64,000 nucleotides of DNA, taken from contig CAVRAG010000008.1 in NCBI GenBank assembly GCA_963718895.1, positions 256,001 through 320,000 on the forward strand, given 5' to 3'. The position numbers and the translations under genes are program-made. The stretch is from an uncultured Nitrososphaerota archaeon (lineage in GTDB: Archaea; Thermoproteota; Nitrososphaeria; Nitrososphaerales; Gagatemarchaeaceae). The notes beneath the pieces are model-generated. The model was not told the DNA's origin and did not search any database. It saw nothing but the letters and a program-made list of their open reading frames with translations. Positions 47,258 to 64,000 of the stretch are shown one piece after another; positions within the stretch are counted from its first letter, which is position 1, and every line of letters starts with the position of its first letter.

Positions 47258-47401
47258 CTAGACTTTCTTCCTGAGCTTCTTAGCGTCGGCCTTCAGTGCA
47301 CTTCCACCTCTCTTGATCTCCTTTCCGGCCTCTATGCCGACCTTGGAGAGATCCGCCTCGGTCTTCTTTACTGCCTTTGTTACCTTGCTCTTGGCTGACA
47401 T
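47258..47401 (-). CDS. Small Lys-rich protein, 47 aa
   Basis: MSAKSKVTKAVKKTEADLSKVGIEAGKEIKRGGSALKADAKKLRKKV. Confidence 0.5.
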   Translation of the reverse strand: MSAKSKVTKAVKKTEADLSKVGIEAGKEIKRGGSALKADAKKLRKKV

Positions 47402-47526
47402 CTTATCGCCCCAAGACATGAAGTCCGAGATAGAAAAACTAGCCCATTCGGCCATCGGAAGGAGGAGCATGGTTGCTCCTGCGGGGCATTCGGAGGGGAA
47501 GGGGTCTGAAGTAAGAGGAGGCGGTC

Positions 47527-47700
47527 CTAGAAGAGATCGAACCCGCGGGGTTCGAGCTTGCTCTTGCAGATCGGACATCGGTAGCCCAGCTCCTTCGCAC
47601 AGATGTCGCAGAAGTGGAGCCTGCAAGTCCTGCATTGGAGATTGAGAATCTCGACGTCGTGGCATTCCGCGCACGTAGCGGGGACAGCTACAAATCCCAT
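47527..47700 (-). CDS. 57-aa RING-like (C4C4) zinc finger, missed by the ORF track
   Basis: Manual translation MGFVAVPATCAECHDVEILNLQCRTCRLHFCDICAKELGYRCPICKSKLEPRGFDLF*. Confidence 0.7.
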   Translation of the reverse strand: MGFVAVPATCAECHDVEILNLQCRTCRLHFCDICAKELGYRCPICKSKLEPRGFDLF

Positions 47701-47860
47701 TCACAGGTCGCCTCGATTGAACGCCAGATGGAAAGAGTGCATGGACTCGCTGCCTCACGGACGTGCGCTCCGGGGGGGCTATCAAGCTTGCGGGCAGGCA
47801 CGATCATCGAAGATAAGCATCAGGTGGTCCGATCGAAAAGACAGGACTACTGGATCTCGC

Positions 47861-48319
47861 TCAGCCTAGCTTGGAACAGGCCGACCGGGGGGTCGCATCT
47901 TCTTCTTTGTCCGAGTAGCTCCCGTTCATCCACAAGAGGTGAAACTTCTCCGCGACGTCGGGGTTTAGTCTGGCGTTGGCGGACATGACTTCAAGGTTTG
48001 AGGATATCTGCACGCACTTGAATGAGCTCCTGTAGACGGCGAATCTCTTCCCTTCACCAGTGACAACTATCCGCTCTACCATGAGAAGGCCGTTGCGAGA
48101 AAGTTCGCTGGTTCTCCTGTAGCACGTGCTCAGGGGGACGGCCTGTTCAAGGCTTATCTCTTGCACGGTCTTGCCTTCCTTCACGGTCGAGGAGACGATC
48201 CTTCTCGAGAACTCGTCGGCCAGAGCCGTCAGGATGCTTCTTGCCAGCGCTCCGTTCAGGACTATCATTTCTCCGACGTTGTCGTTTTCCTTGTGCTCGA
48301 GCCTTATTGTCGTCGCCAT
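47861..48319 (-). CDS. ArsR-like winged-helix regulator
   Basis: ILTALADEFSRRIV, TVQEIS...VPLSTCYRR..EL...GLL. Confidence 0.78.
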   Translation of the reverse strand: MATTIRLEHKENDNVGEMIVLNGALARSILTALADEFSRRIVSSTVKEGKTVQEISLEQAVPLSTCYRRTSELSRNGLLMVERIVVTGEGKRFAVYRSSFKCVQISSNLEVMSANARLNPDVAEKFHLLWMNGSYSDKEEDATPRSACSKLG

Positions 48320-48517
48320 CTGCCGTCGCACGGGAGAGGTTGAGCACGATATTTGACCGGGCCGTATTGGTTGCAACGACCTCGACGCAAATGCGGCGAA
48401 TTGCAATTCCGGCGACCACATATTGCAGGATTCGCGGGAGAAGGCATCTACGTTGGCCGATGGGTGAAAGGAATATATCGCATTACTTTCTCGACTTTAT
48501 GCCGAGGTCCTGCGAGT

Positions 48518-49039
48518 CTGAAAGAGAGAACGGTGACGATTTCCTTCCGGATCAGCGAGACCGCCTTCAAAGCGCTCCAGGAGGACTCAAAGAGGCACAA
48601 CGTCAGCATCAACACGCTCGCAAACCAGCTCTTCGTCACCTACGCCGAGTACGACAGGTATCTTTCGAAGTTCCACATGATCAAGCTCTCTGCCTCGACA
48701 TTCAAGCGGATACTCAACGCGGCGAGCGAGGAAGAGATCGCAGAGGCGGGCTCGACCGCAGGGACCAGCGTCCCCGTGTCCTTCATCCTGGCCCAGAAGG
48801 GTGACTTCACCTTCGAGAACGCCGTGGAGTATCTCAGGACGATGGGAACCCACGCCAACCTCTTCGACTTCACGGAGTCCATTGGGAACTCGAGCACCAT
48901 AAGCAACATCACTCTCACGCACGATCTTGGTCTGCGCGGCAGCGAATTCCTTGCAAATTATGTAGAATCGATGTTCAAGCCGCTTGGGAAGGAGTTCAAG
49001 ATAGTCAAGTATCCGGATGCCATCACGATAAAGTTCTAG
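48518..49039 (+). CDS. Ribbon-helix-helix plus V4R-like hypothetical protein
   Basis: TISFRIS...LQEDSKRHNVSINTLANQL (RHH); HDLGLRGSEFL. Start uncertain (CTG 48518 follows a TATA-like TTTAT). Confidence 0.6.
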   Translation: MKERTVTISFRISETAFKALQEDSKRHNVSINTLANQLFVTYAEYDRYLSKFHMIKLSASTFKRILNAASEEEIAEAGSTAGTSVPVSFILAQKGDFTFENAVEYLRTMGTHANLFDFTESIGNSSTISNITLTHDLGLRGSEFLANYVESMFKPLGKEFKIVKYPDAITIKF

Positions 49040-49128
49040 TCCTGAGATTTTGCGCCCGAACTATGCAATCAATCGCAATTAGTACATCCTGATGATATAC
49101 GGAAGGAATCCTGTTTGCCCGAAGGAGC

Positions 49129-49344
49129 TTGACGGAAGCCTCCCAGTCCACGCTAACGGTCACCCTGCGCACCATAGATGATTTCGAGAAGACCAGGAGG
49201 AGAATCCTGCGGATCAAGGGGGTGAGGACGGCAGACCTGAACTACATATCCCAGAAGCTACGCGTTCGATATGGCGGGGACGCTGAGAGCAGCGTGAAGG
49301 TCCTGGCGGCGATAAAAGAGGCAATCGCGCCCCACGTCGGCTGA
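49129..49344 (+). CDS. HMA-fold small protein without CxxC
   Basis: IKGVRTADLNYISQKLRVRY...VLAAI pattern. Confidence 0.55.
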   Translation: MTEASQSTLTVTLRTIDDFEKTRRRILRIKGVRTADLNYISQKLRVRYGGDAESSVKVLAAIKEAIAPHVG

Positions 49345-49658
49345 GCAGGTATCCGAGACCGGACCGAACCGGTTCCATGCCAGGCCATGAGACGATAACT
49401 TGGAGCCGAGAGTGTCTGAGCATGAGTGACCCGACTCCAGTTGACGTGGGGGGGGCCGCAGAGGACACGGAGTCGCGTCCTCCAACGGCGAGGTCCAGCT
49501 GGGCTCGTTGATTAGGCGGGCGCCGTCTCGGCGGGTGCCGATGGACTCGTTCACGGTACTCGAACAATCCCGACGCTCGTTGCGCCTCGAGGCGAATTGG
49601 CCAAGTTGGCGCCCGTTCGTCACAGTGGAGGGTCGGGGAGCTTCTTCAATCCTCGGGC

Positions 49659-51080
49659 CTAGATTGACGGCCTGATATTCTGATTGAAACGGAACATGTT
49701 GGCCGGGTCGTACCTGTTCTTCAGGGATGTCAACCTCTTGAACTTCTCTTCCCCGTACGCCGCCTTCACTCCCCCCTCACCCTCCTCGCCCATGAAATTC
49801 ACGTACCTTCCAATCGCGAACTTGTCCAACGCCGCAAAGCAAGCCCTCGTCCACTCCATGTGTCTCTGGTTCTCTCTTGAATCGGTCCAGGTGGAAACGA
49901 TGTTGACGATGAACGGGCGCGTCGCGATGGTTGTACGACGTGGAGAGGTCCACGGGCGTCTTCGAGGCGCCACCCAGCTGGTGGATGTGTATCGCGGACA
50001 ACGGCGAAGTGATCTTCTCAGCTTGCTCCAAGAGGGTATCAATCGCCGAGTCAGAGAGCCCACCAATGTAGCATGACTTCCAGTAGTTCATGACGCCCGC
50101 CGGAGCGGACTCGTCGAACAACGATTGAAGAGCCAGATAGGGCATGGGGTGCATGAGGTCGGCTACTGGCTTGCCGAACTTCCGGAGCGGACTCAGCACC
50201 ACCTCCCCTTCCTCGATCGCTCCCGCGTAGCAGACCGCGATCGCCACAACCTTCTTGCCATGTATCTCGCCTGGCAGGAAGGGCGCGGGCGGTGCAGTCA
50301 GGAAGACGGCCAAAGTGGTGAGCTCGTTAGGGACGTCCTTGACGAACTCTCTGTGGAACCTGAGAAGGGCCGGTGCGTCTTCGGCTCTATAAACGAGCAT
50401 GCCCCCGAGCACGATAGTGCCTACCTCGTGGAGTTGGTACTCGAACGAGGTCACGACTCCGAAGTTGCCGCCTCCCCCTCGTACCCCCCAGAAGAGGTCC
50501 GGATTCTCGCTGTTGCTCGTCATGAGGAGCTCGCCATCGGCGGTGACTATGTCGGCGGATACTAGACTGTCGAGGGCAAGCCCGTGCTTCCGCACGAGCC
50601 ATCCGATTCCTCCCCCCAGCGTGAACCCGGCGATCCCTGTGGTCGAGACAAGACCACCCGTCGTCGCAAGACCAAAGGTCTGCGTCTCGCGGTCGAATTC
50701 GCCCCAGGTCACCCCGGGCTCCGCCCTGACCCTGTTCCTGTTCGGGTAGACCCTTATCCCCCTCATCAGAGAAAGGTCGAGCATCAAGCCATCGTCGCAC
50801 ACAGCAGACCCCGCGATGCCATGGCCCCCTCCGCGTACGGAGACCGGTAAACCGTGCCCGCGGGCAAAGTTTACCGCGGTCATTACGTCGCGCGCGCGCC
50901 CAACGCCCTCACTATCAGGGCGGGACGTCTGTCTATCATCCCGTTCCAGACCTTCCTCACCCTGTCATAGGATTCGTCCCCCGGGGATATCACATTCCCC
51001 CTCACGTCGCTCCTCAACTCCCGAACTGCGGATTCCTGGATCAACACGGGGCGCTGCGCTCTTTCGGTCACATGACTCAC
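49659..51080 (-). CDS. FAD-binding oxidoreductase, VAO/BBE family (frameshifts near 50890 and 49920)
   Basis: [56 protein letters not shown]. Confidence 0.88.
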
Positions 51081-51221
51081 ACGGGTGCGACCCGCCTTGA
51101 TATTTAGGCGCTACTCCCGTCAAGGAGGCTCATCAAGACCAGTGGCGCGCGATTAGACGTCGACGGTCGCTTCTGAATCAGGAACTCGCAGTGGAGGCAT
51201 CAGGGAATCGGATTCTGAGAT

Positions 51222-51258
51222 AAGGAAGAGGGGGGAAACCTCCCCGAAGGGAGGTTTC
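51222..51258 (-). terminator. 10-bp hairpin with a C(UUCG)G loop after flavoprotein 1
   Basis: GAAACCTCCC-TTCG-GGGAGGTTTC on the minus strand (51235-51258), then a pyrimidine tract. Confidence 0.6.
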
Positions 51259-51273
51259 AGGTCTGGCCCGGGT

Positions 51274-53046
51274 CTAGGCCCAGGGGTTCTCGGATGAAGC
51301 GTTCGAGCCCGAGATGCGCCCGAAGGCTATCATCTGTGCGTTGTTCGCTCCGAGAGAGAGCATCCCGTCGGTCGAGCCGTTCTCGCCCGCCGCGTATAGA
51401 CGCGGGATTGGGTTATTGTCTGCGTCGCAGATCTGGCCCTTCTCGTTGCGGACCGGACCTCCGAAGGCGCTCGGACCGCCCGGCCAGAGCGGCATCGCGT
51501 AGAACGGAGGAGACACGATCGGGATTAGCGCGGACTTTGGCCTGCCGAACTGGGTATCGACGCCAGAAGAGCAGAAGCCGTTGTAGTTGTTGAGGGTCGC
51601 CTGAAGGGTGGCGGGGTTGATGTTGACCGCCGTGTTGGCCGCTGGACTGCTGTTGTTGGTGCCCGGGGTCATTCCGACGTAGGCAGTGCTGTTCATCGCC
51701 GCGACCAGTGTCGGTACGTCCTTGCCCGACTGTATCCAGCCTCTTGCGATCTCTGAGCTGTTGTCCGAACTCCACGCCGGGCGTGGGTCGAGATACACCG
51801 GAAGTTGGCCGTTTGAGCCGCTGGTGATCGCCCCCGCCTTCCTGCAGGTCTCATCAAATATGATGAAACTCGGGATGCGGGTGTACTGAGGCACAGTGAG
51901 GTCGAAGTCAGACAGCTTGATCCACCAGTTGTGCGAGTACGTCGAAATCTCAGTCTCGTCAGCGTAGCGGTTCCCGTACTTGTCGACGTAGATCCACCCG
52001 TGCTGTGACGGGGCGCAGGTGCTGAACGCAATTGGATACTGAGGGAACCAGGGGACCATGCGAGCCGACATGGCGCCCATGTGCCACATGGCCGCGCCGA
52101 CCTTGGACGCCATCGTGACGCTGTCGCCTGTGCAGAACTGCCACCCGTAGAAGTGGGCGGGATAGACCCTCATGTTGTCCGCCTTCAAGGTCTCGTTGTA
52201 TTCGATGCTTCCCGTTGTGAGGACCACTCCCCTCTTCGCCTGTATGTTGAGCACCTCGCTGTTGTTGGCCATCGCCTGGACTCCGAGAATCTCTCCTGTA
52301 GTCGGGTCTTGGAACAGGTCAGTGGCCGGCGTGTTGAAGAGGATGGGTATGTTTCTTTTCTGGACGAGCGCGTCGAGTTGCTGGAAGAAGACGTTGCCGC
52401 TTGCCAGGGACATCCCCCCGAAGCCCAGCGCTCCGCCGGGAAGGTTCGGGAACTCACCCGTGGTTGAGCTCGTGGTGTACTTGATTCCCATCTGAGTGAG
52501 CCAAGCGGGGTTCTCGACCTCCATCCAGGCGAGAGCCTCGCAGACCGCCATAGGGGTGTTTCCCCAGGACTGCTGGTAGATGTAATTCGCCCCGTTCAAC
52601 GGATCTTTGACGTAGGTGGCGTTGCCGGCGTTCATGGAGGTGTTGCCGCCGCCGCCCGTGATGGTGGGGTTGGCGACCCCGAGCGCGGCGTAACTGGGCG
52701 TCTTCTCGAGCACGAGGACGTTGGCTCCGGCGTCATAGGCGGTGATTGCGGTGACGGCTCCTGCCCCTCCGTAGCCTACCACGACCACGTCTGCAACCTG
52801 GGACCAATTCTCCGGCAGCGGGAGAGGAGCGGCTCTGCTGATGACCCTGCTGACCTTTCTAGTGCCCCTTACCTCGGCTATTCCCCTGGCGGACGCTGCG
52901 CCAAGCGCTGATGAAGCGAACTGTGGTTTGAGGGCGGAGGCAGCAATTGTGGTGCCTCCGATTGCCGCTGCTCCAATGGCAGCGGTACCCAAGAAGCTCC
53001 TTCTTGAGACCCTGACGTCCTTGAAGCTGCTCTTATCCTGAGTCAT
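51274..53046 (-). CDS. Tat-signal FAD_binding_2 flavoprotein, flavocytochrome c / ketosteroid dehydrogenase-like (copy 1)
   Basis: SRRSFLG, DVVVVGYGGAG, VLEK, GGNT, IPRLYAAGE, AFGRISG. No CxxCH motif. Confidence 0.88.
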   Translation of the reverse strand: MTQDKSSFKDVRVSRRSFLGTAAIGAAAIGGTTIAASALKPQFASSALGAASARGIAEVRGTRKVSRVISRAAPLPLPENWSQVADVVVVGYGGAGAVTAITAYDAGANVLVLEKTPSYAALGVANPTITGGGGNTSMNAGNATYVKDPLNGANYIYQQSWGNTPMAVCEALAWMEVENPAWLTQMGIKYTTSSTTGEFPNLPGGALGFGGMSLASGNVFFQQLDALVQKRNIPILFNTPATDLFQDPTTGEILGVQAMANNSEVLNIQAKRGVVLTTGSIEYNETLKADNMRVYPAHFYGWQFCTGDSVTMASKVGAAMWHMGAMSARMVPWFPQYPIAFSTCAPSQHGWIYVDKYGNRYADETEISTYSHNWWIKLSDFDLTVPQYTRIPSFIIFDETCRKAGAITSGSNGQLPVYLDPRPAWSSDNSSEIARGWIQSGKDVPTLVAAMNSTAYVGMTPGTNNSSPAANTAVNINPATLQATLNNYNGFCSSGVDTQFGRPKSALIPIVSPPFYAMPLWPGGPSAFGGPVRNEKGQICDADNNPIPRLYAAGENGSTDGMLSLGANNAQMIAFGRISGSNASSENPWA

Positions 53047-53085
53047 GTGTGGCGACCCACGAGAGGCGTTATTAAGACGAGAATA

Positions 53086-53107
53086 CGATTCTCACGTTTG
53101 AGAATCG
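53086..53107. promoter_or_regulatory. Operator TTCTCA-N4-TGAGAA, site 1
   Basis: CGATTCTCA-CGTT-TGAGAATCG, perfect 9-bp arms, just upstream of the TATA box. Confidence 0.75.
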
Positions 53108-53236
53108 CCGGCAAAGTCGGACCGTCATTGGAGGGGCTGCGACCGGCGAGCGGGACCGGCGAGGAAGCGGAAAGTAACAATGGTCGAGGACCTGGTCGGT
53201 GATCGGAGCGGACCGGATGCTGCCATCCGGTCCGTC

Positions 53237-54681
53237 TCACCAGTCGAGGTGAATGTCTTACGTCCGGGCTTCCCGTGCGAGAGTCCTGCCCGGGGCTGCC
53301 TCGCTGACGCTGCGGTAGCCCAGGCCCTGACACAGGCCTGGTAGAGGTCCTTCAGCGAGACCGGGTGAAGGGGTCGGGGCGAGGTCGAGCGCCCGGCCGT
53401 AGATGTGGGGGTTCTTGGGTAGGAGTCGCCGGCCGCCCTGTTCCTCTGCGGAGACCGGAAGCCGGAGACGACACGGAGCGCTCCGCGGGACTCCCCCGAA
53501 CTCCTGGCTGACCCTGTCGAAGGCGGCCTGCATGCCACCATCTACGACCAATTCGTAGTTCCCGATGTTGAAAGACCGGTCGACCGGATGGGCCAAGCAG
53601 TCGCTCCTCGGGGGGATGACGCTCTCGTTGTGGTCGATGTACTCCTGCCTCAGGAGGTCGACGTCGTCCTGGACAAGGATGAAGTGTTGTTCGATGCCCT
53701 CGAACGCCGCTGAGACGTCGTACTGAAGAGGGCGGTTGCGGAAGTGGTTGACCCGTCGTTTGGGCGCGCCCCGGGATCTGGCTGGAAGCGAAGGTCATGC
53801 TCTCGGGCGCCTGGTTGGGAACCCCGCTCCCACTGAACGGGCCCATCCCTTTGACATGCCACGCGATCAAGTTCGCCCATCCTGATTCGACGTACAGTCA
53901 CCCCCGGGATCACAATGCGAAGACTGATGGAGTCAGTGGAAACGAACAAGTGGCGGCCGTCGGACGCGGTCGTCCCGTTCGATGTTGAACGATGGGATTA
54001 GCGTGAACGTCCAAATCGTGGTTCGAATCCCCAATCCAGCCTCGTCTTGGAACGATCTGGGTGACTGTCTGCGGTTCGGGGTCCTTGAGATCGATGAAGA
54101 GGCGCTTGAACTCATTCAGACCAGTCTGGGGGAGGCTGTGGACCATGAGGAGATCGGCTTCGTTTCCTGCGGGAATGAGTGTCGCAGTGGGAGCCTTCAT
54201 CACATCGAGGATGGTCGGGGCGTCGTCGGTCCACGGCATCTCCCAGCCCCACGCAGACCGGGGAGCCTGCCAACCCCAGTTCAGCTTCGTCGAGAAGGGT
54301 CGTGGTACGGGCATCGCGCCTTGGGTGCCAACTCCTGGAGCGGTCTCCATCCCCTTTGCATCCACTCCCGAGCTACGTACAACGATGGTCATGGTCTCAG
54401 CCTAGGGGGTGATAAAGTCCCCCCACGGTCCACTGTGCGGTCCCATTCCCGGTTACCTGCAGTGTGGGGGTCGTGGCTTGGACGTCGAATACGCCTACCA
54501 TCCTTCCCGCGACAGAATTCTGCGGAATCACCGGAACTCCAGCCTTCTGAGTAGGGGCGCGCGAGAGGAAGACGTTGAACACAAGGCTGCCCTTGAAATT
54601 GAAGGAGACCGAGGTTTGGCCAGCGATCCCGCTCGTTGCCGTCACCATCGCGCTCCAAGTGCTGGAGATGTCCAAGGCCAT
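53237..54681 (-). pseudogene. M15-type zinc peptidase gene, multiply frameshifted (copy A)
   Basis: Pieces in several frames: VVSGFRSPQRN, PKNPHIYGRALDL, HIHLDW*; colinear with 57779..59193. Confidence 0.75.
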
Positions 54682-55262
54682 AGATCTCTTTTTCGCGAAA
54701 GACCTTTTTTGGCTATTTAAGAGTGGGGTTCCGGACAGAGAGGTGCGTGGGACGGCTGGAGGCCGTTTCGGTTCACCGACGATGACTGGTCCGGGTGCAC
54801 CTTAGACCGCGCGCTAGCAGATACCGCACCCCGTCCGACCTGCTGGGTGAACTGACCACTAGACTAAATGAAAAAGGAGAAGCCAAACCCGTCGTGGAGA
54901 TTAGGTCGTGCCCCCTTTGGCAGGGCGTCTGAATTCGCTTCACCTGTTGACCTCCCGAGCTCGGGCCCTTTCGTCGCTCCCGGTCCACAATGCGGCAAGC
55001 AGCCCTTGAGTGTCGTGATTTGCACCTCCGCGGTCGCCCGTCCCATGAAGATTTCCCAATGATGGCTTCCTATGAGGTCGTATTGCCTTTTCCGTCAAGG
55101 GTTGTCCGTAGAGGTCTCTCGACTGATTGTCAGAGAACACTCTTTTGAAAGACGGCGCCCACGGGCGTACTCAGGAACCGGACGGACTCGGGGTGCGTGG
55201 TCTCGCCACACGGAAAAAGAAAGGAAGGAAGCTCCCGAGAAGGAGGCAGCTGCAAAGCAAGT

Positions 55263-57231
55263 CTAGGACGTAGGCCAGTTGTAGGGCGCTTCGTTGGCGG
55301 CGTTGTTTCCGCTATGCGGCCGAAGGCGATGCTTTCGCCGTTGTTGCCACCGCCTTGGTACAGGAACCCCAACGGATCCGCACTCTCCGCCGCCGTACAG
55401 CCTGGGTATGGGGTTGTAGTCGGGGTCACGAATGTGACCGAACTGGTCACGAATCGGACCGCCGTTGGTGTTTGGCCCTGCTGGCGAAGAGCGAGTGCTC
55501 GTCCGCGGAATGCTCAAAGACCAGGGTCGCCGCACTAGTTCCGAAGACTGTATCGCCCTTGCCAGCCGCTACGTCGGCGTTGAACTTGCTCACGGCGGCG
55601 GTCAGGTTGGCAGCGCTGAAGTGTGGGCAGTTTGTGCCTCCGGGGAGGCTTACGTTGTCCATGCTCTCGTAGCTTTCCCAGCCTGCTGGGACTGCCATTC
55701 CCTGGTTCGAACCGTAGATTGTCGCTGCAGCGATGTTTGCCGGCTAGGGTTGGTAGGTCTGCGCCCTGAATGATCCATCCCGCAGCAATCTCTGCCTGGG
55801 TTGTTGTTGCTCATGGCGTTCCATACGCCGAACCAGAAAAGGCCGCAGAAGCCAGTGCTCCCGTGCCTCCGAGCTGCGTTGGAAGGGCGTTGATGCCGGT
55901 GCCATAGACCAGCTGGGTCGAGCTGGATGTAGTCGACGTGGTAGTCGTGGTCGTTGTGGTCTGTTCCGGCTTGGGGGACTCCTTGCCCCACCGATCCTAG
56001 AACGTGGAAGTTCGGCTCCGCCTTCTGGCTGCGTTGTTCCGGTGCTGTCGAAGATCAGCATGGTCGGAACACGGGAATGCTCCCATACTGGAAGTTCCAA
56101 TCGACCACGGCTTGCCAAGTGCTGTGGCTCGGAAGACCAGTCTCGTTAGCGAACCGGTTGCCGTACCTGTCGGTCCAGATATAGGCGTTAGTCGGGTGGT
56201 GCTGCGCCGAAGCCGTGTTGTAGGTCGGAATTCAGGGCGAAAGGCGTCCTAGGTCGAGTTCATGTGCCAGAGACCGGCCCCCGCCTTCATCGCCATTCGA
56301 CTGGATCACGAGCGCTGCATTGCCAGCCGCCGAAGTGGTAGGGAGCCATCTTGAGGTAGTTCAGCTTCATGGTTGCGTCGAATTCAATCCTCCCGTGGTG
56401 ATGATGACCGCCTTGTTGGCCTGGATATGTTCACCGTTTGGCTCAGTTCTGAAGCGCCCGGACGCCAATCGCCTCGCCTGTGTTGGGGTCCTGAATCACC
56501 TTGGTCCCCTGGTGTGAACAAGAGAGGAACGTTCCTTGCTTGGACCGCTTTGTCCAACCCATAGAAGAATCCCATGCCGCTGTTCGTAGTTGTGCAGGTG
56601 GCAAAGCCGGTGTTGGCGTATGGAAAGTTAGGGTACTAGGGGTAGTTGTTGAGTAGGAGTATGGGATGTTAAAGCTGTCCAACCATGCCCGGTTCTGGAC
56701 CGACATCTCTGCCCATGCTTGGGAGACCTCCATCGGGGTACTACCGTAGCACATGTAGTTGTGCCAGCCTGCGCCCCCAATCGTCGTGAGTGGGAAGAAG
56801 ACCAGACCGCCGCATATGTGTGTGTTTGCCGCCGCCGCCCCGGATTTCAGTTTCTGCGTGCCCAGTGTTGGCAATCCCTAGGCTAGCCAGAGTGGGGTCT
56901 TTTCATAATGAGCACTCCGCCTGCATCATCCGCGGTGATCGTGTCAACAGCGCCTGTCCTCCAGAAATCGACGATCACGACGTCTGCTGAAGACTGCCAC
57001 GATGATGGAATGGTAACGCGGCCGCCTTGTAGCCCGCCGCTGGTCCTCCGCCGACGGCCGAGACGACGCCGGAAGTGCCTCCAAGCGTTGCGGCCGATGC
57101 GAGTCTGGGAGTGAGCGCGGAACGCCGTCGATCACGGTCCCCCCGATCGCCGCCGCTCCGATGGCGTCAACGCTCCGAGGAAGCGCCTCCTCGAGAGCTC
57201 GATGTCTTGGCTTTTTTTCGTCGCTAGTCAT
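55263..57231 (-). pseudogene. Decayed Tat FAD_binding_2 flavoprotein (copy 2)
   Basis: Fragments IGAAAIGG, NTHICGG, ARNVPLLF, GPNTNGGP, NPIPRLYGGGE, IAFGRI in shifting frames with many indels. Confidence 0.8.
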
Positions 57232-57273
57232 AAGTGTAGCGCGGCCTGCAGGCTTAAGAGAAAACGGGCACGT

Positions 57274-57289
57274 TTCTCAACTTTGAGAA
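57274..57289. promoter_or_regulatory. Operator TTCTCA-N4-TGAGAA, site 2
   Basis: TTCTCA-ACTT-TGAGAA upstream of the 57231 start. Confidence 0.7.
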
Positions 57290-57334
57290 CAGGAATCCGT
57301 CCGAGGTAAAACCCCTACTTGCGCTAGCGCACAC

Positions 57335-57727
57335 CTAGACCTCAAACCGACAGCCTGATGTTCTGATTGAAGCGGAAAAAGCTTGGTCTGGTCGCCCTTG
57401 TCCCTCAGCGCTGTCAACCTGCTGAGGCTTCTGTTCCGCATGCCACTCCCTGTCCTCGCCCTCTTCGTCCATGAAATTCACGGAGGCTCCCCGTCGAGAA
57501 CATGCCCACGACGGCGAAAGAATTCCATCGACCAATCGATGTGCTTCTGGTTCTCTCTCGATGGTCCACGTGGAAGTTAGGTTGACGGTGAATGGTGCGT
57601 CGCGATAGCTGTATGATATGGAAAGGTCTACGGGCATAGCTGAGGCTCCTCCTAGCCGTGAGGTGTGGATGGCTGACAGAGGCGACGTGACCTTCGACCC
57701 GGACTCCAGGATGGTGCCAATCGCCGA
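57335..57727 (-). pseudogene. C-terminal fragment of a BBE-family FAD oxidoreductase
   Basis: [10 protein letters not shown]...PVDLSISYSYRDAPF...VNFMDEEGE matches the end of 49659..51080. Confidence 0.78.
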
Positions 57728-57778
57728 GCATTTGATGCATGAGGAGAGTGGGCCCGAGTCTGCCCATCTTGACCCGCC

Positions 57779-59193
57779 TCACCAGTCGATGTGCACGTGC
57801 TTCGCGTCCGGGCTTCCCGGTGGGACAGCTTTGCCCGGGGCTGCCTCGCAGACGCTGTGGTAGCCGGCCCTGACGCAGGCCTGGTAGAGTACCTCCAGCG
57901 CCGATGGGCTGGAAGGGTCAGGGGCAAGGTCGAGGGCCCGGCCGTAGACGTGTGGGTTCTTCGGATGGAAGTCACCGGTCGCCATGTTCCTCTGGGGAGA
58001 CCGGAAGCCGGAGACGACGCGGAGCGAACCGCGGGGTTCCCTCCCGTACTCCAGGCCAATCCTGTCGAAGGCGGCCTGCATCCCGCCGTCGACGACCAAT
58101 TCGTAATTCCCGATATTGAAGGACTTGTCGACCGCATGAGCGATGAAGTCGCTCCTCGGAGGCACGACGCTCTCGCCGTGGTCGATGTACTCCTGCCTCA
58201 GGAGGTCGACGTCGTCCTGGACGAGGATGAAGTGTTGTTCGATGCCCTCGAACGCCGCTGAGACATCATACTGGAGCGGCCTATTGCGGACGGTCGACCC
58301 GTCGGTCGGGCGCGTCCCGGGGTTGGGCTTGAACGCGAAGGTCATGCTGCAGACGTGTGGTCGGGGACCCCGCTCCCGCTGAACGGGCCCATCGCCTTCA
58401 CCTGCCACGAGGTCAACCTCGCCCAGCCCGACTCTGGCACCGTCACGCCCGGGATCGCAAGGCGAAGGCTGATAGAGTCGGTCGAGACGAACGAGTAGCG
58501 ACCGGCCGGTCCACGGTCATCCCGCTCGATGTTGAATTGCGGGATAAGCGCGAAGGTCCAGGTAGTGGTCCGGGTCCCCAGGCCGGCCTCGTCCTCGAAC
58601 GTCTGTGTTATGGTCTGGGGTTCGGGGTCCTTGAGGTCTATCGAGACGTGTTTGAACTCCTTTATGCCTGTCTGGGGCAGGCTGTGCACCACGACGAGGT
58701 CGACCTCGCGTTCGGATGGGATTACCGGCACCGCTGGAGGCGACATCACGTTGAGCACGGTCGAAGGGTCCTCAGGTCTCGGAGCAGGCCAACCCCAATT
58801 GAAAGCGGTTGAGAAGGGCTGGGCTACGGGTGTGGCGCCATGCGCTACATCCGCCAATAGAGTCTGCAGGCCCTTCGCCTCGGCTCCCGAGCTACGGATC
58901 GCGATGCTTATCGATTCGGTCACAGGGTCGAAGGTTCCCGCCAAGGTCCATCCCGCGGTCCCTTCCCCTCTCATCTGCATGGTCTCGGTAGTGACCTCGA
59001 GGTCGAAAGTCCCGACCATCCTTCCGGCGACGGAGTTCGCCGGGATGACGGACTCTTCCGGCTGAGGATCGGGGCCTAGTGCAACAAACACAGTGAACGC
59101 CAGACTTCCCTCAAAGCTGAAGGAGACCGAATTCTTGCCGCTTATAGAACTGGTCGCGATTGCTTTGGCAGCCCAAGGGCTTAGAATCTCCAA
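57779..59193 (-). CDS. Beta-rich protein with a C-terminal M15 (Hedgehog/DD-peptidase) zinc domain (copy B; one frameshift near 58352)
   Basis: SGFRSPQRN, HVYGRALD (H-x6-D), HVHIDW (H-x-H). About 470 aa when joined. Confidence 0.75.
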
Positions 59194-59400
59194 GATCGTG
59201 AGTCTCCATTCAGGGGAACGATTTTTCGATATTTAAGAGAGGAGCTTCGCAGATGGAGTGGCGCCTAGTGCATTTCAAGTTTCGGCCAAAGAAGAGTGCA
59301 ATCCCGTGACGGCTGCACGCCAAACGATGACGAAAATAGAGGTGTGAAGGTTTGGGCTCGTCTGCGAACGCGGAAGAATCGGAGTCGCCGGGAGACGCCG

Positions 59401-59440
59401 AAAGTAGAGAGGAGAGGAAGCTCCATTCTCAGGAGCTTCC
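59401..59440 (-). terminator. Hairpin plus pyrimidine tract after flavoprotein 3
   Basis: GGAAGCTCC-N7-GGAGCTTCC (59416-59440). Confidence 0.55.
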
Positions 59441-59451
59441 CACCACTGAGC

Positions 59452-61293
59452 CTACGATGTCCAGGGAGTTTCGGCTGCTGCGTTGGTCCCGGCGATGCGC
59501 CCGAAGGCGATCAGCTCGCAGATGTCGCCCCCGCCCGTTGGGTAAAGGAACCCATAGACGGAGCCGTTCTCGCCGTTGCCGTATAGCCTCGGAATCGGGT
59601 TGTCGTAGGGGTCGGTAATCTGCGATTTCGCGTTGCGCTGAAGTCCGCCCTGGGTGTTCGGTCCTCCTACCCAAAGTGGGAGCGCATAGTACGGAGGCGT
59701 CTGCAGCGGGGCCATCGTCAGGGCGGTCCGCTGGAAGAGCGTGTCGCCCTTGCCTGCGGCGCAGTCCACGTTGTACTGGTTCACAGCTGCTATCAGGTTG
59801 GCCGAGGAGAAGTTGGGCGCGTTGGTTCCATCGGGTATGGTGACCGTGTCCATGCTCTCGGCGGCGTTCCAGCTCGGTGGAACGGTCATCCCCTGGTTCG
59901 AGCCGATGATATTCCATTTTGCGATGTTCGCGGCCAGCGTGGGGAGATCTGGTCCGGACATGATCCATCCAGCAGCTATCTCAGTGGCGTTGTTCGAGCT
60001 CCAGGGAGTTCCAGGTGACGAGCCGGCACCGAGTACTCCTCCAAGCTGGACTGGAGTCGAAGTGGGGCCTCCGGATGCAACAGGGCCTTTCTGGCAATAG
60101 GTGTTGTCGAAGATTACGAAGGATGGAAGGTTGGTGTACTCGCCGACGACCAGGTTGAAGCCGTTCATTGCGCACCATCCGCTGTGGGATGGGTAGCCGC
60201 TTTCGTTCAGGAAGCGCTGGCCGTATCTGTTCACCCAGATGTAGTTGTTGGTGGGGTTGTTGTAGGACCATCCCTGGTTGAGCCTGGGTACCCAGGGCTC
60301 GGGGCGTCCGGACACCGCGTTCATGTGCCACAGGGCCGCTCCGACCTTCTGGCCCATCTTGATCCCGTCTCCGGTGTTGTACTGCCACCCGTAGAAGTGA
60401 TCGGGATAGGCCTTGAGGAATCTCACCTTCATGACGTCGTCGTACTCGAATCCTCCTGTGCAGATGATGACTCCCCGCTTGGCCTGGATGTTGAGAATCT
60501 GACTTCCACTCTGACTCGCCTGTACGCCTAGAATCTCACCGGTCGTCGGGTTCTGTATTAGGCCCGTGGCCCGGGTGTTGAAGAGCACAGGTATGTTCCT
60601 CTTCTGGACGAAGCCGTCCAGGAACTTGAAGAGCTGCTGGCCTTGCCCGTTCACGTTGTAGTTGCTGATCGAGGAATAGCCAGGGACGTTCGGGAACTCG
60701 CCGCTCATGCTGGCGAGAGTACAGGGGATGCCCATGGAGTCCAGCCACGCCTTGTTCTGGTTCGCCATCGTGCCCCAAGCTTCGCAGACGTCCATCGGAG
60801 TCGCGCCGAACGAGAGGCTGTACAGGTGCTGCGCTCCGGCCACCGGATCGGTGGGCCATACGCACAGCCCTCCAGAGATGTGGGTGTTCCCTCCCCCTCC
60901 GGAGATCTGGTCCGAGGCTTGCGTGCCGTTGGTGATCCCCAAACTTGCAAGGCTCGGCGTCTTCTCGAGTATCACCACGTTGGCTCCGGCATCATAGGCC
61001 GTGACGGCCGAAACCGCGCCCGCCCCTCCGTAACCTACCACGACCACGTCTGCGGACTGGGACCATGTCGTGGGAACTGGTATCGGGGCACCCTTGCTGA
61101 CCGACGACGCCCTATGAATCACTGAGACCTCACCCCTAGCGCCGGCGCTTGCTGCCGCCGACGCAAACCTAGGATTGAGAGAGGACGCGGCCACCGCCGT
61201 CCCTCCTACCGCAGCGGCTCCGACCACCGCAGTCCCCAAGAAGCTCCTTCTCGATAGCTTCAAGTTGCTGAGCTTTCCCTTATCATTAGTCAT
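59452..61293 (-). CDS. Tat-signal FAD_binding_2 flavoprotein (copy 3)
   Basis: SRRSFLG, DVVVVGYGGAG, GGNTHISGG, NTGDG, GGPNTQGGL, AFGRIAG. No CxxCH motif. Confidence 0.88.
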   Translation of the reverse strand: MTNDKGKLSNLKLSRRSFLGTAVVGAAAVGGTAVAASSLNPRFASAAASAGARGEVSVIHRASSVSKGAPIPVPTTWSQSADVVVVGYGGAGAVSAVTAYDAGANVVILEKTPSLASLGITNGTQASDQISGGGGNTHISGGLCVWPTDPVAGAQHLYSLSFGATPMDVCEAWGTMANQNKAWLDSMGIPCTLASMSGEFPNVPGYSSISNYNVNGQGQQLFKFLDGFVQKRNIPVLFNTRATGLIQNPTTGEILGVQASQSGSQILNIQAKRGVIICTGGFEYDDVMKVRFLKAYPDHFYGWQYNTGDGIKMGQKVGAALWHMNAVSGRPEPWVPRLNQGWSYNNPTNNYIWVNRYGQRFLNESGYPSHSGWCAMNGFNLVVGEYTNLPSFVIFDNTYCQKGPVASGGPTSTPVQLGGVLGAGSSPGTPWSSNNATEIAAGWIMSGPDLPTLAANIAKWNIIGSNQGMTVPPSWNAAESMDTVTIPDGTNAPNFSSANLIAAVNQYNVDCAAGKGDTLFQRTALTMAPLQTPPYYALPLWVGGPNTQGGLQRNAKSQITDPYDNPIPRLYGNGENGSVYGFLYPTGGGDICELIAFGRIAGTNAAAETPWTS

Positions 61294-61335
61294 AAACCAA
61301 AGTCCGCCTGTAGCGTTAATAAAGAACGTACACGA

Positions 61336-61351
61336 TTCTCAACTTTGAGAA
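61336..61351. promoter_or_regulatory. Operator TTCTCA-N4-TGAGAA, site 3
   Basis: TTCTCA-ACTT-TGAGAA upstream of TATA TTTATTAA. Confidence 0.75.
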
Positions 61352-61573
61352 CTCCTCGATTGATGGAATTCCCAGGCATCCTGAGCTGTGCAGACTTGGA
61401 ACTGGTCTAGACATGCCCGAATCAAGAATCAGGATGGCCGTGAGACTCCTCTCTTCCGAAATATTGAGAAAACAAGTGCGCCCCAAAGACCGTCCTTCAG
61501 ACACTTAGTCGTGTTAGCCGCCAGGAGGCTCCTAGCGGCCGACGCGATTGGTGTTCAACCCAGAGCGACTGCT

Positions 61574-63032
61574 CTAGGCTGCCGGTTTCTTCGACCTAGA
61601 GCCCGCTACGAGGTACCCGATGGCGAGCCCGACGATCAGGAGGACCACCATTGCACCATAGGCCCAAGCCGGGACTCCCGAGGACGAACTGCCAGTGCCT
61701 GTCGAAGTCACTGTAGCCGTTGTGGTGGAGACCGATGTGGCGACCGAGGTTATGGTTGTTGGCAGCGTCGTCGTGCTCGATCACCGTCGAAGTGACGGCC
61801 GACGCGGGCGTGTAGGAGAAGGTCGAATTTGCGTGGAAGGATCCGTATGTGGCCTTCACGGAGTACGTGCCGCTCACCCAGAGGCTGTTGACTCCGGGGT
61901 GGAACGTGTCATTGAACGCTCCGTTCGATGCCACCGTGGCGCTGTCAGCGAACACTACGGCGCCCGCAGGGTTCGTTATAGTCAGAGTGACTAGGTAGCC
62001 GTAGGTGGCACCAGTCAGAGTGCCGGATATGGTACCGGTCGGAGTCCCCACGTAGCTGCCGGAATTCGTGGAGACGGAGACCGCCGTGACGGGCGAAGTG
62101 AACGTCGACGTGGAGGACGAAGAGGTCGTCGTGCTTCCGGATGAGGAAGAGGTCGTGCTTGTGGATGCTGACGAACTGGTCGTGCTCGAGGACGAACTTG
62201 TGGTCGAGCTGGAGCTGGACTTTGTCGAGCTGGTGGTTGTCGAGCTTGTGGTGGTACTAGATGTCGAACTGGTGGTCGAGCTTGTGGTGGTCGAAGACGT
62301 AGTGCTGCTGGACGTGGTCGAGCTGGAGGTTGTTGTTACTCCGCAGGTAGTGCAGGCGCTGCCGCTGAAGGTCAACACGTATGAGGCCATGTCGGTCGCG
62401 CCGTGGTCTCCTGGATTGTTGAATTCGCCGACGGCGAAGCCGAGCTCAATCGTGGAGCCTACACCCAACTTTGGAAAGTCGTAGGGAGAGGCGCCAGAGA
62501 GCGTGAAGGGTCGATAGCACTCGGCCGTGTACACGCCGCTCGCTACCGTCAGACCGCACACAGATTGGGTCTTGTATCCCAGCGACTCTACTGTCGAAGG
62601 AGTCTGCTCGCCGGCGCTGACGAACTCGTCAACGTTTCCCTTGAACGAGGGGCTGGCGAGTATCATTATGGTGGGTGTGGAAGGCCCTCCCATCACCTGT
62701 GTGTTGTTGAGGTAACCGATCTCTATTCCACCGAAGCAGTTCGTGTCACTGCAGTAGAAGGGAGATGACTTCCAGGTCATGAGGAAGAGCCATCCCGATA
62801 CGTTCTGTTTTACCGCGAAGGTGATTCCCGAGGTCGGATCCGTGAGCACCGCGGTGTCCGTCCATTGGGAAGCTGAATAAGTTCCGTGAACGTTGACGGC
62901 AATCGTGGACTTGTAGCCGGTCACCGTCGTGGGCGCGCCCATGGCCGCACCTACCGACATGGCCGACACTAGTGCCATCAGGACCATGATAGCAGAAATC
63001 CTAGAAACGCTGAGTTTGGGTTTGTTAAGCAA
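61574..63032 (-). CDS. Secreted, C-terminally anchored protein: DOMON-like domain, Ser/Thr linker, Ig-like domain (frameshift near 61778)
   Basis: Sec signal; IEIGY...VMGG...AECYRPF...D...GFAVGE...DH; poly-S/T linker. Corrected end VPAWAYGAMVVLLIVGLAIGYLVAGSRSKKPAA*. Confidence 0.68.
62100..62340 (-). repeat. Low-complexity Ser/Thr linker
   Basis: TTTSSSTTSSSTTSSTTTSS... about 80 codons. Confidence 0.85.
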
Positions 63033-63081
63033 TTTTGCTCTAGCTTCCCGTGCTTGCTGCCGTAATTAAAGGCAGAGGACA

Positions 63082-63099
63082 ATTCTCAAAGATGAGAAT
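63082..63099. promoter_or_regulatory. Operator TTCTCA-N4-TGAGAA, site 4
   Basis: ATTCTCA-AAGA-TGAGAAT upstream of TATA TTTAATTA of the DOMON-like gene. Confidence 0.72.
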
Positions 63100-63776
63100 G
63101 GAATTTCGAGGCCTCGGAATCCAGGGAGGTAGCAACCCGGCACCCGTCCAGCTTCCTATTGACAGCTCCAAGCCAACGAGTGAGACGTCCGCGTGGACGA
63201 GCCGTTCTCTTGGAGGGGCCAATGCGCAAGCTCCTCACGTCCGAATGAAGAGAGCTCAAGGAGTGGAGAACTGGCGCTCGATCCGCAGCGGGAGGACCCG
63301 AATTCTCTTGCGAACGAAGAAGACGATATGATCTCTTTCCATCGAGCCCACGGCATCGATCTAAGGAACGGAGGCCGCGCACTGAGGTTCCGGCGCCATA
63401 GTCTCAGTTTTCTGTGAGGTCGCACCCGCGCGACCGAATTCGCACGCTATCCGGAGACACTGACGACTCGCGCTCTACGCGACCATGCAGAATCGCGTGC
63501 CGACGGGAGTGGAACCTGTTTCAGCCCCGCCTCTTCCGCGCCATAGCGTAGGCCAGGGTTGCGCGATTCTGAAGACGGTGTCCAACGTCGGTTGTTGTGG
63601 CTCAGTTAAGATGATCGTCGTGTGGTAGCGCCCGGGAGAGGTCGGCAGAAGAAGCTGCGACCCTTGAATCGGCAGAAATCCTCCTGCTGTTCACACGTAA
63701 CCCGCATCCGAGAATCGGGGACGCCTGATGCGGACTAGCATCCCCACGACGCCGGCCTCGCAAATCCGCTGGAGCT

Positions 63777-64000
63777 CTAGCTCGGGGCGGCCTTCGGTTT
63801 CGGAGCCCTGAGGTACGCTATCAGGGCGACTACGATGCCTACGACGACCAGAGCCGCGGTGATTTCGATGTCGACCGCCTGGACAGTGAACGTGCTCCAG
63901 CTGAAGGAGAGCGCCGAGTAGATCGGCTGGAATCCAGACTCCCCGAGCGTGATCTCAGCGCCCATCGACGCGGTCAGCGAGGTGAAGACGAATCCCAAGA
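63777..64000 (-). CDS. Membrane protein, C-terminal part (cut by window edge)
   Basis: Terminal TM helix ITAALVVVGIVVALIAYL plus a basic tail. Confidence 0.55.
   Translation of the reverse strand, partial: LGFVFTSLTASMGAEITLGESGFQPIYSALSFSWSTFTVQAVDIEITAALVVVGIVVALIAYLRAPKPKAAPS

Follow-up and report, generated by a model that had tools for sequence, protein, structure and literature searches.

How an archaeon that appears to lack cytochrome c might connect redox enzymes outside its cytoplasmic membrane to the respiratory chain is the question raised by a 64,000-nucleotide stretch of DNA (the window; G000:C8:256001-320000), in which genes for two exported flavoproteins and for a membrane-tethered surface protein with a DOMON-like head share one promoter element. 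The assembly to which the window belongs comprises 11 contigs totalling 3.13 Mb, is 80.5% complete and has about 59% G+C; its rRNA is archaeal (SSU_rRNA_archaea, 1447 bits, with an archaeal large-subunit gene adjoining the small-subunit gene). The host is a soil or peat thaumarchaeon of Gagatemarchaeaceae type that does not oxidise ammonia. These Group I.1c Thaumarchaeota are abundant in acidic soils and peat and uncultured, and how they wire extracytoplasmic redox enzymes without cytochrome c is the matter addressed here. Throughout, G, L and P label genomes, loci and homologous proteins, and G000 is the host genome. We propose, at about even odds, that the locus encodes a cytochrome-c-independent electron-transfer module composed of flavoenzymes exported by twin-arginine translocation (Tat), a tethered DOMON protein carrying haem b and a membrane partner. 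The features on which this proposal turns are the following, in window coordinates.

51274..53046, minus strand: flavoprotein A, 590 amino acids (aa), with the twin-arginine motif SRRSFLG and an FAD_binding_2 domain (PF00890, 108.1 bits, E 7.7e-31)
53069..53104, minus strand: promoter of flavoprotein A, with the palindrome at 53089-53104, TTAATAA at 53069-53075 and the ATG 42 nucleotides (nt) after the palindrome; 50.3 bits with the position matrix
59452..61293, minus strand: flavoprotein B, 613 aa, with the twin-arginine motif SRRSFLG and an FAD_binding_2 domain (PF00890, 105.2 bits)
61316..61351, minus strand: promoter of flavoprotein B, with the palindrome at 61336-61351 and the TATA-like sequence TTTATTAA at 61316-61323; 50.0 bits with the matrix
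61577..63032 (called open reading frame (ORF) 61596..63032, 478 aa), minus strand: gene of the DOMON/EB_dh-like surface protein, with a TTG start
63063..63098, minus strand: promoter of the DOMON-like gene, with the palindrome at 63083-63098, the TATA-like sequence TTTAATTA at 63063-63070 and the TTG start 50 nt after the palindrome; 42.3 bits with the matrix

A functional link between the flavoproteins and the DOMON-like protein is best supported by their conserved adjacency. Nineteen related loci, found with a profile of the DOMON family, were searched with our own query proteins. Seventeen of them, all but L020 and L029, have a FAD_binding_2 gene no more than 10 kb from the DOMON gene, and in 10 (L021, L022, L024-L028, L030, L031 and L033) a flavoprotein gene read in the same direction stops fewer than 200 nt upstream of it. 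One gene intervenes in two further loci (gene X, described below, in L023 and a FAD_binding_4 gene in L034), the order resembles that of the window in four (L016-L019), and the two genes are divergent in one (L032). The initial annotation of this DNA, which had paired co-regulated flavoenzymes with a DOMON haem carrier, is upheld in part: a functional link between the two kinds of gene is supported by this synteny across related genomes. Its list of parts lacked a conserved third component: a gene for a membrane protein of 205-222 aa, here called mem211, follows the DOMON gene in 11 of the 19 loci, and a membrane-protein gene follows in seven of the 10 in which a flavoprotein gene stands directly before the DOMON gene. 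In L029 and L032 the next gene instead encodes a homolog of P0271, a hydrogenase-linked protein that matches FdnI (1kqf_C, a cytochrome b556 subunit; E 2.6e-4), so that a mem211 or cytochrome b gene follows in 13 of the 19.

The host genome carries four DOMON copies, two of them directly after flavoprotein genes (C8:459577 and C8:852656). The second DOMON gene, just past the window at C8:320412-321335, is preceded by a palindrome promoter of its own and runs into the start of a mem211 gene, and G021 holds a complete flavoprotein-DOMON-mem211 cassette. Among 31 genomes of the family, which are related rather than independent samples and are in many cases incomplete, the DOMON profile matches in six (one weakly), mem211 in four and the flavoprotein profile (E<=1e-40) in four, with all three present in G000, G021 and G030. 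The suggestion that one carrier serves several enzymes fits the window, where one DOMON gene accompanies two intact flavoproteins, but 10 of the 19 loci look one-to-one.

The second line of evidence is the promoter element. The palindrome TTCTCA-N4-TGAGAA occurs four times in the window (53089-53104, 57274-57289, 61336-61351 and 63083-63098) against 0.02 copies expected by chance, a count that none of 100 shuffled sequences reached. Genome-wide, 10 exact copies were found in 3.13 Mb and none of a reversed-pattern control; with up to one mismatch the numbers are 33 and one. On the minus strand, a TATA-like box (TTAATAA, TCTTAAG, TTTATTAA or TTTAATTA) lies 9-13 nt past each window palindrome, and the distance from palindrome to start codon is 42 nt for flavoproteins A and B and for a degraded third flavoprotein copy, and 50 nt for the DOMON-like gene. 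All 10 exact genomic copies, read in one orientation, are built alike: (A/T)TCG comes next, then a TATA-like box after 9-13 nt, and the start codon, ATG or TTG, stands 42-55 nt from the palindrome. In flavoproteins A and B the TATA box is only about 22 nt from the ATG, from which we infer leaderless transcripts or transcripts with very short leaders. Because the host is archaeal, what had been called an operator is an element upstream of the transcription factor B (TFB) recognition element (BRE) and TATA box rather than a bacterial operator.

A position matrix was built from 18 hand-chosen sites, whose own scores are therefore circular. It gives 32 genome-wide matches above 14 bits (19 of them above 30 bits) against two in the reversed sequence, and, in an independent test on 285 kb of related loci left out of its construction, 53 matches above 20 bits against none in the reversed control. 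Twenty-three of these 53 sit directly before flavoprotein or DOMON genes. Where starts are well placed, the spacing in the related loci is 42-44 nt for flavoproteins and 46-51 nt for DOMON genes; estimates for genes whose tblastn match starts internally scatter from -7 to 78 nt. The promoter of the L016 ortholog of flavoprotein B scores 52.3 bits with a similar 43-nt spacing, and the site and spacing of the DOMON-like gene's promoter are kept in L016, L017 and L018. Of 31 genomes sampled from the family, 22 contain the exact palindrome, as do all six other genomes of the genus. A shared element at a fixed promoter position, common to flavoprotein and DOMON genes as first proposed, is real and conserved.

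The element is not private to these genes and marks a wide regulon, not an operator reserved for them. In the host, palindrome promoters also precede three more flavoprotein paralogs (C8:109380, C8:862461 and C8:1481761), TatA (PF02416), a half-size CtaA-like haem A synthase (PF02628), several small membrane proteins and, at two loci, a gene for an ArsR-family regulator that is followed by one for an anchored protein here called CYCH; a weaker element (22.7 bits) stands before the host's sole WWD-family (CcmF/CcsA-like) gene. In relatives it precedes three Usp genes and genes for Hsp20, a CBS-pair protein, CoxG, TatA and the small subunit of a Tat-exported [NiFe]-hydrogenase. This membership resembles that of bacterial dormancy and energy-limitation regulons, and it suggests a response to energy limitation or low oxygen, which hints at when the system would be used. 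Through the CtaA-like and WWD proteins, the regulon also places haem handling in one programme with a protein that is exported through the general secretion (Sec) pathway and presumably loaded with haem outside the cell.

Both flavoproteins begin with SRRSFLGTA, which fits the Tat pattern S/T-R-R-x-F-L followed by a hydrophobic stretch, and both carry the dinucleotide-binding motif VVVVGYGGAGA near the N-terminus; their PF00890 scores lie far above the cut-off of 20.4 bits. The Pfam TAT_signal model stays below its cut-off for these proteins (the L003 paralog scores 17.6 against a cut-off of 22.7). No CXXCH motif is present in the translations of A and B, and their description as haem-less Tat flavoproteins holds. 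The solved structures nearest to a profile of 47 relatives are flavocytochrome c3 fumarate reductases (E 1e-48), followed by urocanate reductase (2e-46) and by ketosteroid dehydrogenases (1e-42). In flavoprotein B, R360 and E364 of a GnRFxNE motif do not vary among the 47 relatives; they align with the motif of the catalytic arginine in 1d4c, the only part of that active site that is kept: His365 is replaced by Arg, His504 by Asn or Thr, and Arg545 is lost, at what we take to be the fumarate-binding positions of 1d4c. No NCBIfam equivalog cut-off is reached by either protein, whether for the soluble fumarate reductase/flavocytochrome c model TIGR01813 (124.7 and 130.5 bits against 285) or for the 3-ketosteroid dehydrogenase models NF009478 and NF005882 (107-119 bits against 788-789). 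By these motifs they appear to be C=C or C-C oxidoreductases of unassigned substrate and not fumarate reductases. The host genome encodes about 13 such paralogous exported flavoenzymes.

The DOMON-like protein starts with a probable signal peptide, which is followed by a beta-sandwich of about 190 aa, some 100 aa of serine/threonine-rich (S/T-rich) stalk and another small domain, and it ends in a transmembrane anchor. In the assembly the anchor is out of frame owing to a single frameshift near 61780, and is encoded at 61577-61780 in another frame; it is intact in P0006, which is 92% identical (the L016 ortholog is 91% identical). One contig from an RNA library, belonging to a relative, has one base fewer at 61778, so the break fits an insertion or deletion particular to this assembly or strain. 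The predicted tethering of the protein, by a stalk and a membrane anchor, is borne out. Its family is narrow and lineage-restricted: a set of 1.84 billion proteins contains 32 representatives.

No usable match in the PDB came from sequence or profile searches with the DOMON family. An AlphaFold2 model was built from 62 homologs (pLDDT 89, pTM 0.82). Foldseek matched it in the PDB to NxrC (7b04_C; E 1.7e-6, TMq 0.55) and EbdC (2ivf_C; E 3e-6), then to carbohydrate-binding module family 9 (CBM9; E 1.4e-5), the cytochrome domains of cellobiose dehydrogenase (CDH; 4qi3 and 1pl3, E 5e-4 to 7e-4) and dopamine beta-hydroxylase. These matches span E 1.7e-6 to 8e-4 and TMq 0.25-0.56 and place the head among DOMON-type beta-sandwiches, in agreement with the fold first proposed from the letters alone. 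Its nearest neighbours in language-model space, at 0.90-0.91, are gamma subunits of steroid C25 dehydrogenases of the EB_dh family, a lead rather than proof. M114, M123, H210 and M215 are invariant in 62 close relatives. In an alignment of 13 sequences that reaches down to 23-32% identity, M114 is kept in 12, H210 in 11 and M215 in all 13; M123 and four cysteines are not kept. Three distant members (P0104, P0107 and P0109) score 25.8, 18.8 and 17.3 bits with EB_dh, under the cut-off of 33.3, and the distant proteins P0109 and P0111 are fused to Ni_hydr_CYTB (PF01292), a dihaem cytochrome b (E 9e-12 and 7e-14).

The same fold search allows the head to be a CBM9-type carbohydrate- or surface-binding module that tethers the cell or its enzymes to plant polymer and has no redox role. 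The leading fold matches include two CBM9 structures (7nwo and 1i82) and 4jpq, a putative carbohydrate-binding protein, all at E 1.4e-5 to 4e-5; a long S/T-rich stalk with an extra small domain is typical of surface glycoproteins, and one Atlas neighbour (0.87) carries CBM9_1 in 11% of its members. The best fold matches, however, are haem-b subunits, the Met and His residues persist down to 23% identity, the distant members combine sub-threshold EB_dh scores with dihaem cytochrome b fusions, and a gene for a membrane protein or cytochrome b follows at most of the related loci. We consider a purely sugar-binding head improbable. The fold matches, the Met/His conservation, the sub-threshold EB_dh scores and the cytochrome b fusions, taken together, favour a haem-b DOMON domain over a sugar-binding module.

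The mem211 protein matches no Pfam family even at E<=5. Its model (pLDDT 89) is a bundle of five long helices, with H14 and E19 invariant near the start of helix 1; by the positive-inside rule, H14 probably lies near the outer face. A fold search returned nothing significant, the best hits being STEAP2 (E 0.32) and cytochrome b561 (E 0.41). The name 'cytochrome b561', under which the mem211 homolog P0135 is filed in a database, was considered and set aside as unsupported by fold or Pfam search. Separately, two metagenome proteins, P0051 (751 aa) and P0085 (697 aa), join a DOMON-like head and stalk to a polytopic membrane domain of about 450 aa that belongs to no Pfam family; the membrane part of P0051 is unlike mem211 by BLASTP.

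In the proposed module, Tat-exported FAD enzymes of the flavocytochrome c3/urocanate reductase/ketosteroid dehydrogenase family would act on the outer face of the membrane, and their redox partner would be the Sec-exported protein, held there by its anchor on a probably glycosylated S/T-rich stalk. Its DOMON/EB_dh-type head would bind one haem b through Met114 and His210 (or Met215) and shuttle electrons between the flavin enzymes, which it would contact, and a membrane partner, mem211 in most loci and an FdnI-like dihaem cytochrome b in others, which would in turn communicate with the quinone pool. A putative factor binding TTCTCA-N4-TGAGAA just upstream of the BRE and TATA box would switch these genes on together with TatA, haem A synthase, the uptake hydrogenase and stress proteins, in response to a signal that may be low energy or low oxygen. 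As to direction, we lean modestly towards substrate dehydrogenases that feed the aerobic chain inward over respiratory reductases, because the co-regulated genes encode electron donors or parts of an aerobic chain (uptake hydrogenase, CoxG and haem A synthase) and because Met-ligated DOMON haems tend to have fairly high potentials. The reductive direction is still allowed, since the closest solved relatives of the flavoproteins are reductases. When flavoprotein B (residues 70-613), together with FAD and haem, was co-folded with the DOMON head as partner (residues 30-235), both runs scored 0.00, a result that counts neither way.

Several observations pull against this module. The window's DOMON-like protein has no sequence match in Pfam, NCBIfam or the PDB, and PF09459 (EB_dh) has none in the host genome; the leading fold matches are moderate (TMq 0.41-0.56) and include the sugar-binding CBM9 fold. 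M114 and H210 or M215 are candidate axial haem ligands only. The single invariant His of mem211, together with its lack of a significant fold match, offers little by which to call it a cytochrome. In the window the DOMON and flavoprotein genes stand under separate promoters, and sharing of the element is weak evidence for a specific partnership because the regulon is so broad. L029 has a DOMON gene and no flavoprotein gene within 10 kb, G015 (three matches) and G010 (one) carry DOMON genes without a flavoprotein match at E<=1e-40, and G029, a genome 66% complete, encodes two flavoproteins and has no DOMON match. Two host flavoprotein paralogs are followed by a CYCH-type protein instead (C8:992389-992869 and C4:217824-218189). 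Were the enzymes flavin reductases, the fairly high potential of Met-ligated haem b in known DOMON/EB_dh proteins would suit an acceptor better than a donor.

Part of this evidence would equally be expected if the DOMON protein and its membrane partner formed a general quinone-linked surface relay, serving the hydrogenase or extracellular acceptors such as Fe(III) or humics, and owed their proximity to flavoproteins to a shared island and stress regulon. Just past the window (L002:2582-6279, equal to G000:C8:321582-325279), the second DOMON gene and its mem211 gene are immediately preceded by an operon for an uptake [NiFe]-hydrogenase. Its small subunit is Tat-exported and anchored at the C-terminus, the gene of its large subunit is frameshifted, and between the two subunit genes stands one for an FdnI-like cytochrome b of 206 aa. 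The small-subunit gene recurs in the same neighbourhood in L016, L020, L027 and L034, and in L027 it has a palindrome promoter. The DOMON genes of G015 and G010 point the same way, as do the distant members fused to cytochrome b without involvement of a flavoprotein. This account leaves unexplained why, in 10 of the 19 loci, the flavoprotein gene has the palindrome before it and ends within 200 nt of a DOMON gene on the same strand, an operon-like arrangement, and the hydrogenase operon already has an FdnI-like cytochrome b of its own; we regard it as unlikely.

It is also conceivable, though decidedly unlikely in our estimate, that the flavoproteins work without a partner or with another one (oxidases, direct reduction of soluble quinones or humics, the CYCH protein or gene X) and that the DOMON protein is unrelated to them. 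Several paralogs have no adjoining DOMON gene, among them the two followed by CYCH genes; the product of gene X is encoded after flavoprotein genes in L016, L018, L019 and L023; and G029, with its two flavoproteins, has no DOMON match. Against this, the direct adjacency to DOMON genes is conserved across several genera-level lineages, X has no redox motif recognisable in Pfam scans, and the known exported enzymes of the family, flavocytochrome c3 and UrdA, depend on a haem or flavin carrier domain. A dedicated flavoenzyme-DOMON-membrane protein module remains the reading that we prefer.

Other carriers were sought in the host genome, and no match was found there to ApbE, FMN_bind, EB_dh, CcmE, ResB or Cytochrome_CBB3 (class-I cytochrome c), absences that are soft because the genome is only 80.5% complete. 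In a published survey (PMC4429474), cytochromes c were not found in Thaumarchaeota. According to PMC10640624, the Gagatemarchaeaceae are aerobic and heterotrophic and possess ctaA, ctaB and a haem-copper oxidase of the A1 type. The host has a lone WWD-domain protein (651-667 aa, PF01578, motif WGGYWSWDPIE) at G000:C7:555244-557199 (L035:9245-11248, minus strand), and no second WWD gene, CcmE or ResB was found in the genome; the lone protein could be an exporter or handler of haem for extracytoplasmic haem-b proteins. The view of the system as free of cytochrome c is supported by the absence of CcmE, ResB and class-I cytochrome c, but has to accommodate this one WWD haem-handling gene with its weaker element.

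Taken further, the DOMON haem-b protein and mem211 might represent an unrecognised class of quinone-linked entry port that replaces cytochrome c for exported flavin dehydrogenases, and possibly for the GMC-type dehydrogenases described below and for the hydrogenase, with the whole set under an archaeal persistence or low-oxygen regulon that acts through a palindrome adjacent to the BRE and TATA box, analogous to bacterial dormancy regulons. We offer this wider reading tentatively, as a possible one that is nevertheless doubtful.

Comparison with known systems separates what is familiar from what is new. The gamma subunits EbdC (2ivf_C) and NxrC (7b04_C) provide the best fold matches and, through their family, the nearest language-model neighbours; they are extracytoplasmic single-domain beta-sandwiches of the kind proposed here, the last electron-transfer subunit in an exported redox enzyme, and a conserved Met and a basic or His residue seem to lie at comparable relative positions (their haem ligands we take to be Met/Lys). 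The window protein, in contrast, lacks a Pfam match, has its own stalk and anchor and is followed in relatives by a dedicated membrane-protein gene, and its partner genes encode FAD_binding_2 flavoproteins rather than molybdenum-bis(pyranopterin guanine dinucleotide) (Mo-bisPGD) and Fe-S subunits. No gene for a Mo or Fe-S subunit is present among the 10 ORFs in 49777-63032; the 19 related loci were not searched for them. CDH (4qi7, 4qi3 and 1pl3) resembles the proposed system in joining a flavin dehydrogenase to a mobile DOMON haem b, with ligands that are presumably Met/His, and its cytochrome domains are significant fold matches. Unlike the present genes, it is a single fused polypeptide with a GMC domain, fungal and secreted; here the genes are separate, the flavoenzyme is of the FAD_binding_2 type, the haem domain would be membrane-anchored, and no GMC-DOMON fusion is seen.

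Flavocytochrome c3 fumarate reductase and UrdA (1d4c, 1qjd and 6t85) are the closest solved relatives of the flavoproteins (E 1e-48 to 2e-46), share the catalytic GnRFxNE arginine and are likewise exported enzymes taken to depend on a separate electron-carrier module, whereas the window flavoproteins have neither a tetrahaem c domain nor FMN_bind and do not conserve the fumarate-binding residues. The DOMON-cytochrome b fusions of P0109 and P0111 recall eukaryotic CYBDOM proteins, in which an extracytoplasmic DOMON haem domain is joined to a membrane b-type cytochrome; the window protein differs in being unfused, with a single C-terminal anchor, and its mem211 neighbour is not recognisable as a cytochrome b. 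In Sulfolobales, CbsA and CbsB comprise a heavily glycosylated membrane-anchored surface cytochrome b558/566 beside a polytopic membrane protein, linked to a bc1-analogous complex and not to flavoproteins. The likeness to them is one of description only, with the hint of a PF09459 match in the Sulfolobus acidocaldarius control genome.

A DOMON haem-b carrier is thus a known principle; what is new is the FAD_binding_2 class of partner, mem211 and the regulon. No paper describing a flavoprotein-DOMON module in archaea was found in full-text literature searches, and the main text of PMC10640624 does not mention DOMON, fumarate reductase, ketosteroid or twin-arginine, although its gene tables may list some of the genes. 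The locus amounts to a testable parts list of about 13 flavoenzymes, a lineage-restricted DOMON family, a new membrane protein and a defined promoter element. If the haem-b relay is real, it would extend the carrier principle of fungal CDH and bacterial molybdoenzymes to a new enzyme class and to archaea, would explain the oxidation or reduction of soluble organics outside these archaeal cells, and would come with one of few clear archaeal regulons inferred from sequence alone.

Further exported flavoenzymes lie elsewhere in the window. Two tandem pairs on the minus strand (32626-35781 and 38214-41441) each encode a stalk protein and a GMC-like protein. The GMC-like proteins, of 620 aa and 622 aa, match the large subunit of fructose dehydrogenase (7w2j; E 8e-10) and have no Pfam match at E<=0.001; their partners, of 450 aa and 426 aa, combine a Tat signal (sub-threshold with Pfam TAT_signal in the 426-aa protein), a coiled coil and Gluconate_2-dh3. 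Six such pairs occur in the host genome. The stalked GMC enzymes noticed earlier are therefore real, and no cytochrome c subunit was seen with them. They resemble fructose dehydrogenase and gluconate 2-dehydrogenase, three-subunit membrane-bound flavoproteins of acetic acid bacteria in which periplasmic oxidation feeds the respiratory chain. One subunit of those bacterial enzymes is a trihaem cytochrome c; in the host genome no cytochrome c domain was found.

Contigs that derive from relatives (90-95% identical) occur in RNA libraries of peat, four runs of one study, and span almost all of the DOMON gene (for example 61916-63005) and portions of the genes for flavoproteins A and B. They are weak evidence that orthologs of these genes are transcribed, since RNA libraries can hold DNA and contigs cannot rank expression or show absence; the latter applies also to 52867-55271 and 57196-59119, over which the four runs gave no contig. 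A search of sequencing runs returned small word shares, at most 0.18.

The rest of the locus, between the two intact flavoproteins and downstream of A, contains the following.

49777..50883, minus strand: FAD_binding_4 (BagG/FevA2-like) oxidoreductase gene, downstream of flavoprotein A (PF01565, E 8.5e-27; NF041227, 204 bits against a cut-off of 850)
53240..54681, minus strand: degraded second copy of gene X, in at least three frames; tblastn with the intact X proteins of L016 finds pieces in frames -1, -2 and -3 at 31-62% identity
55281..57231, minus strand: degraded third flavoprotein copy, starting MTSDEKK, with no ORF above 144 aa; tblastn gives 29-34% identity over a long piece, with a frame change near 55500
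57232..57289, minus strand: promoter of the degraded flavoprotein copy, with the palindrome at 57274-57289 still exact, TCTTAAG and the ATG 42 nt after the palindrome; 40.7 bits with the matrix
57779..59193, minus strand: gene X, about 480 aa when intact, with one frameshift near 58342-58408

The ORF-poor interval 53100-59400, inside the span first marked out, is not empty: it holds the frameshifted gene X and a decayed second flavoprotein-X unit (55281..57231 and 53240..54681) whose promoter palindrome is intact. An rRNA operon had been considered for this interval and was rejected, as Rfam and tRNA scans found no RNA gene in 44000-64000 and the region consists of frameshifted and degraded protein genes. 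Gene X has an N-terminal domain of no known family and a C-terminal LAS/Peptidase_M15_3-like domain with the zinc-peptidase motif SGFRSPQRN...HVYGRALD...HVHIDW; the intact ortholog at L016:14293-15732 matches PF08291 at E 5.8e-4, under the cut-off. A signal peptide was not seen in X, which might be exported as a Tat hitchhiker. A peptidase-like domain of this kind is odd in an archaeon without peptidoglycan. A Pfam scan of the 10 called ORFs across 49777-63032 found FAD_binding_2, FAD_binding_4 and unassigned proteins only. The FAD_binding_4 gene, whose N-terminus seems to be absent from the called ORF, also follows a flavoprotein A gene in L019 and L034.

Frameshifts, seen also at L004, L036 and L037, are frequent in the host assembly, where they break flavoprotein genes at C8:862461, C8:460373-462221 and C8:853561-855214 as well as the gene of the hydrogenase large subunit. 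Because related long-contig assemblies (L018 and L034) also carry scattered frameshifts, some of these breaks may be assembly errors. The density of breaks in the second flavoprotein-X unit argues for true decay there.

Two paralogous ArsR loci with palindrome promoters (L006:2521-3868 and L007:2067-3366; G000:C8:~1302500-1304140 and ~542800-544400) encode an ArsR-family regulator with an EMCVC motif, then the CYCH protein, which is anchored, about 255 aa long and marked by the conserved motif GCYCHNNG. Its Atlas neighbours, at 0.85, are Reelin-domain-like, which is a lead only. The ArsR genes lie about 230-255 nt downstream of the palindrome promoters, and the intervening sequence differs between the two loci; with that sequence unconserved, an ArsR protein that binds the palindrome by autoregulation would be a guess. 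At L008:2730-4632 (G000:C8:~1405000-1407600), a palindrome promoter of 46.6 bits precedes a run of membrane-protein genes, GtrA-like and DedA-like by eye, which ends in a Tat-signal Rieske-type protein (CTHAPC...CPCHG).

More than 10 paralogous N-terminally truncated TFB-like genes are scattered through the host genome, each encoding two TFIIB cyclin repeats (PF00382) in 217-242 aa without a zinc ribbon. They are found at G000:C8:457995-458645, 851598-852317, 856053-856484, 869975-870613 and 989749-990255, at C4:216299-216913 (L036:1993-2646, L037:2590-3318) and at L026:9565-10140, either directly after flavoprotein-DOMON cassettes or farther on, some hundreds of nt to about 2,000 nt past a flavoprotein gene or a flavoprotein-CYCH pair, and may be cassette-specific transcription factors.

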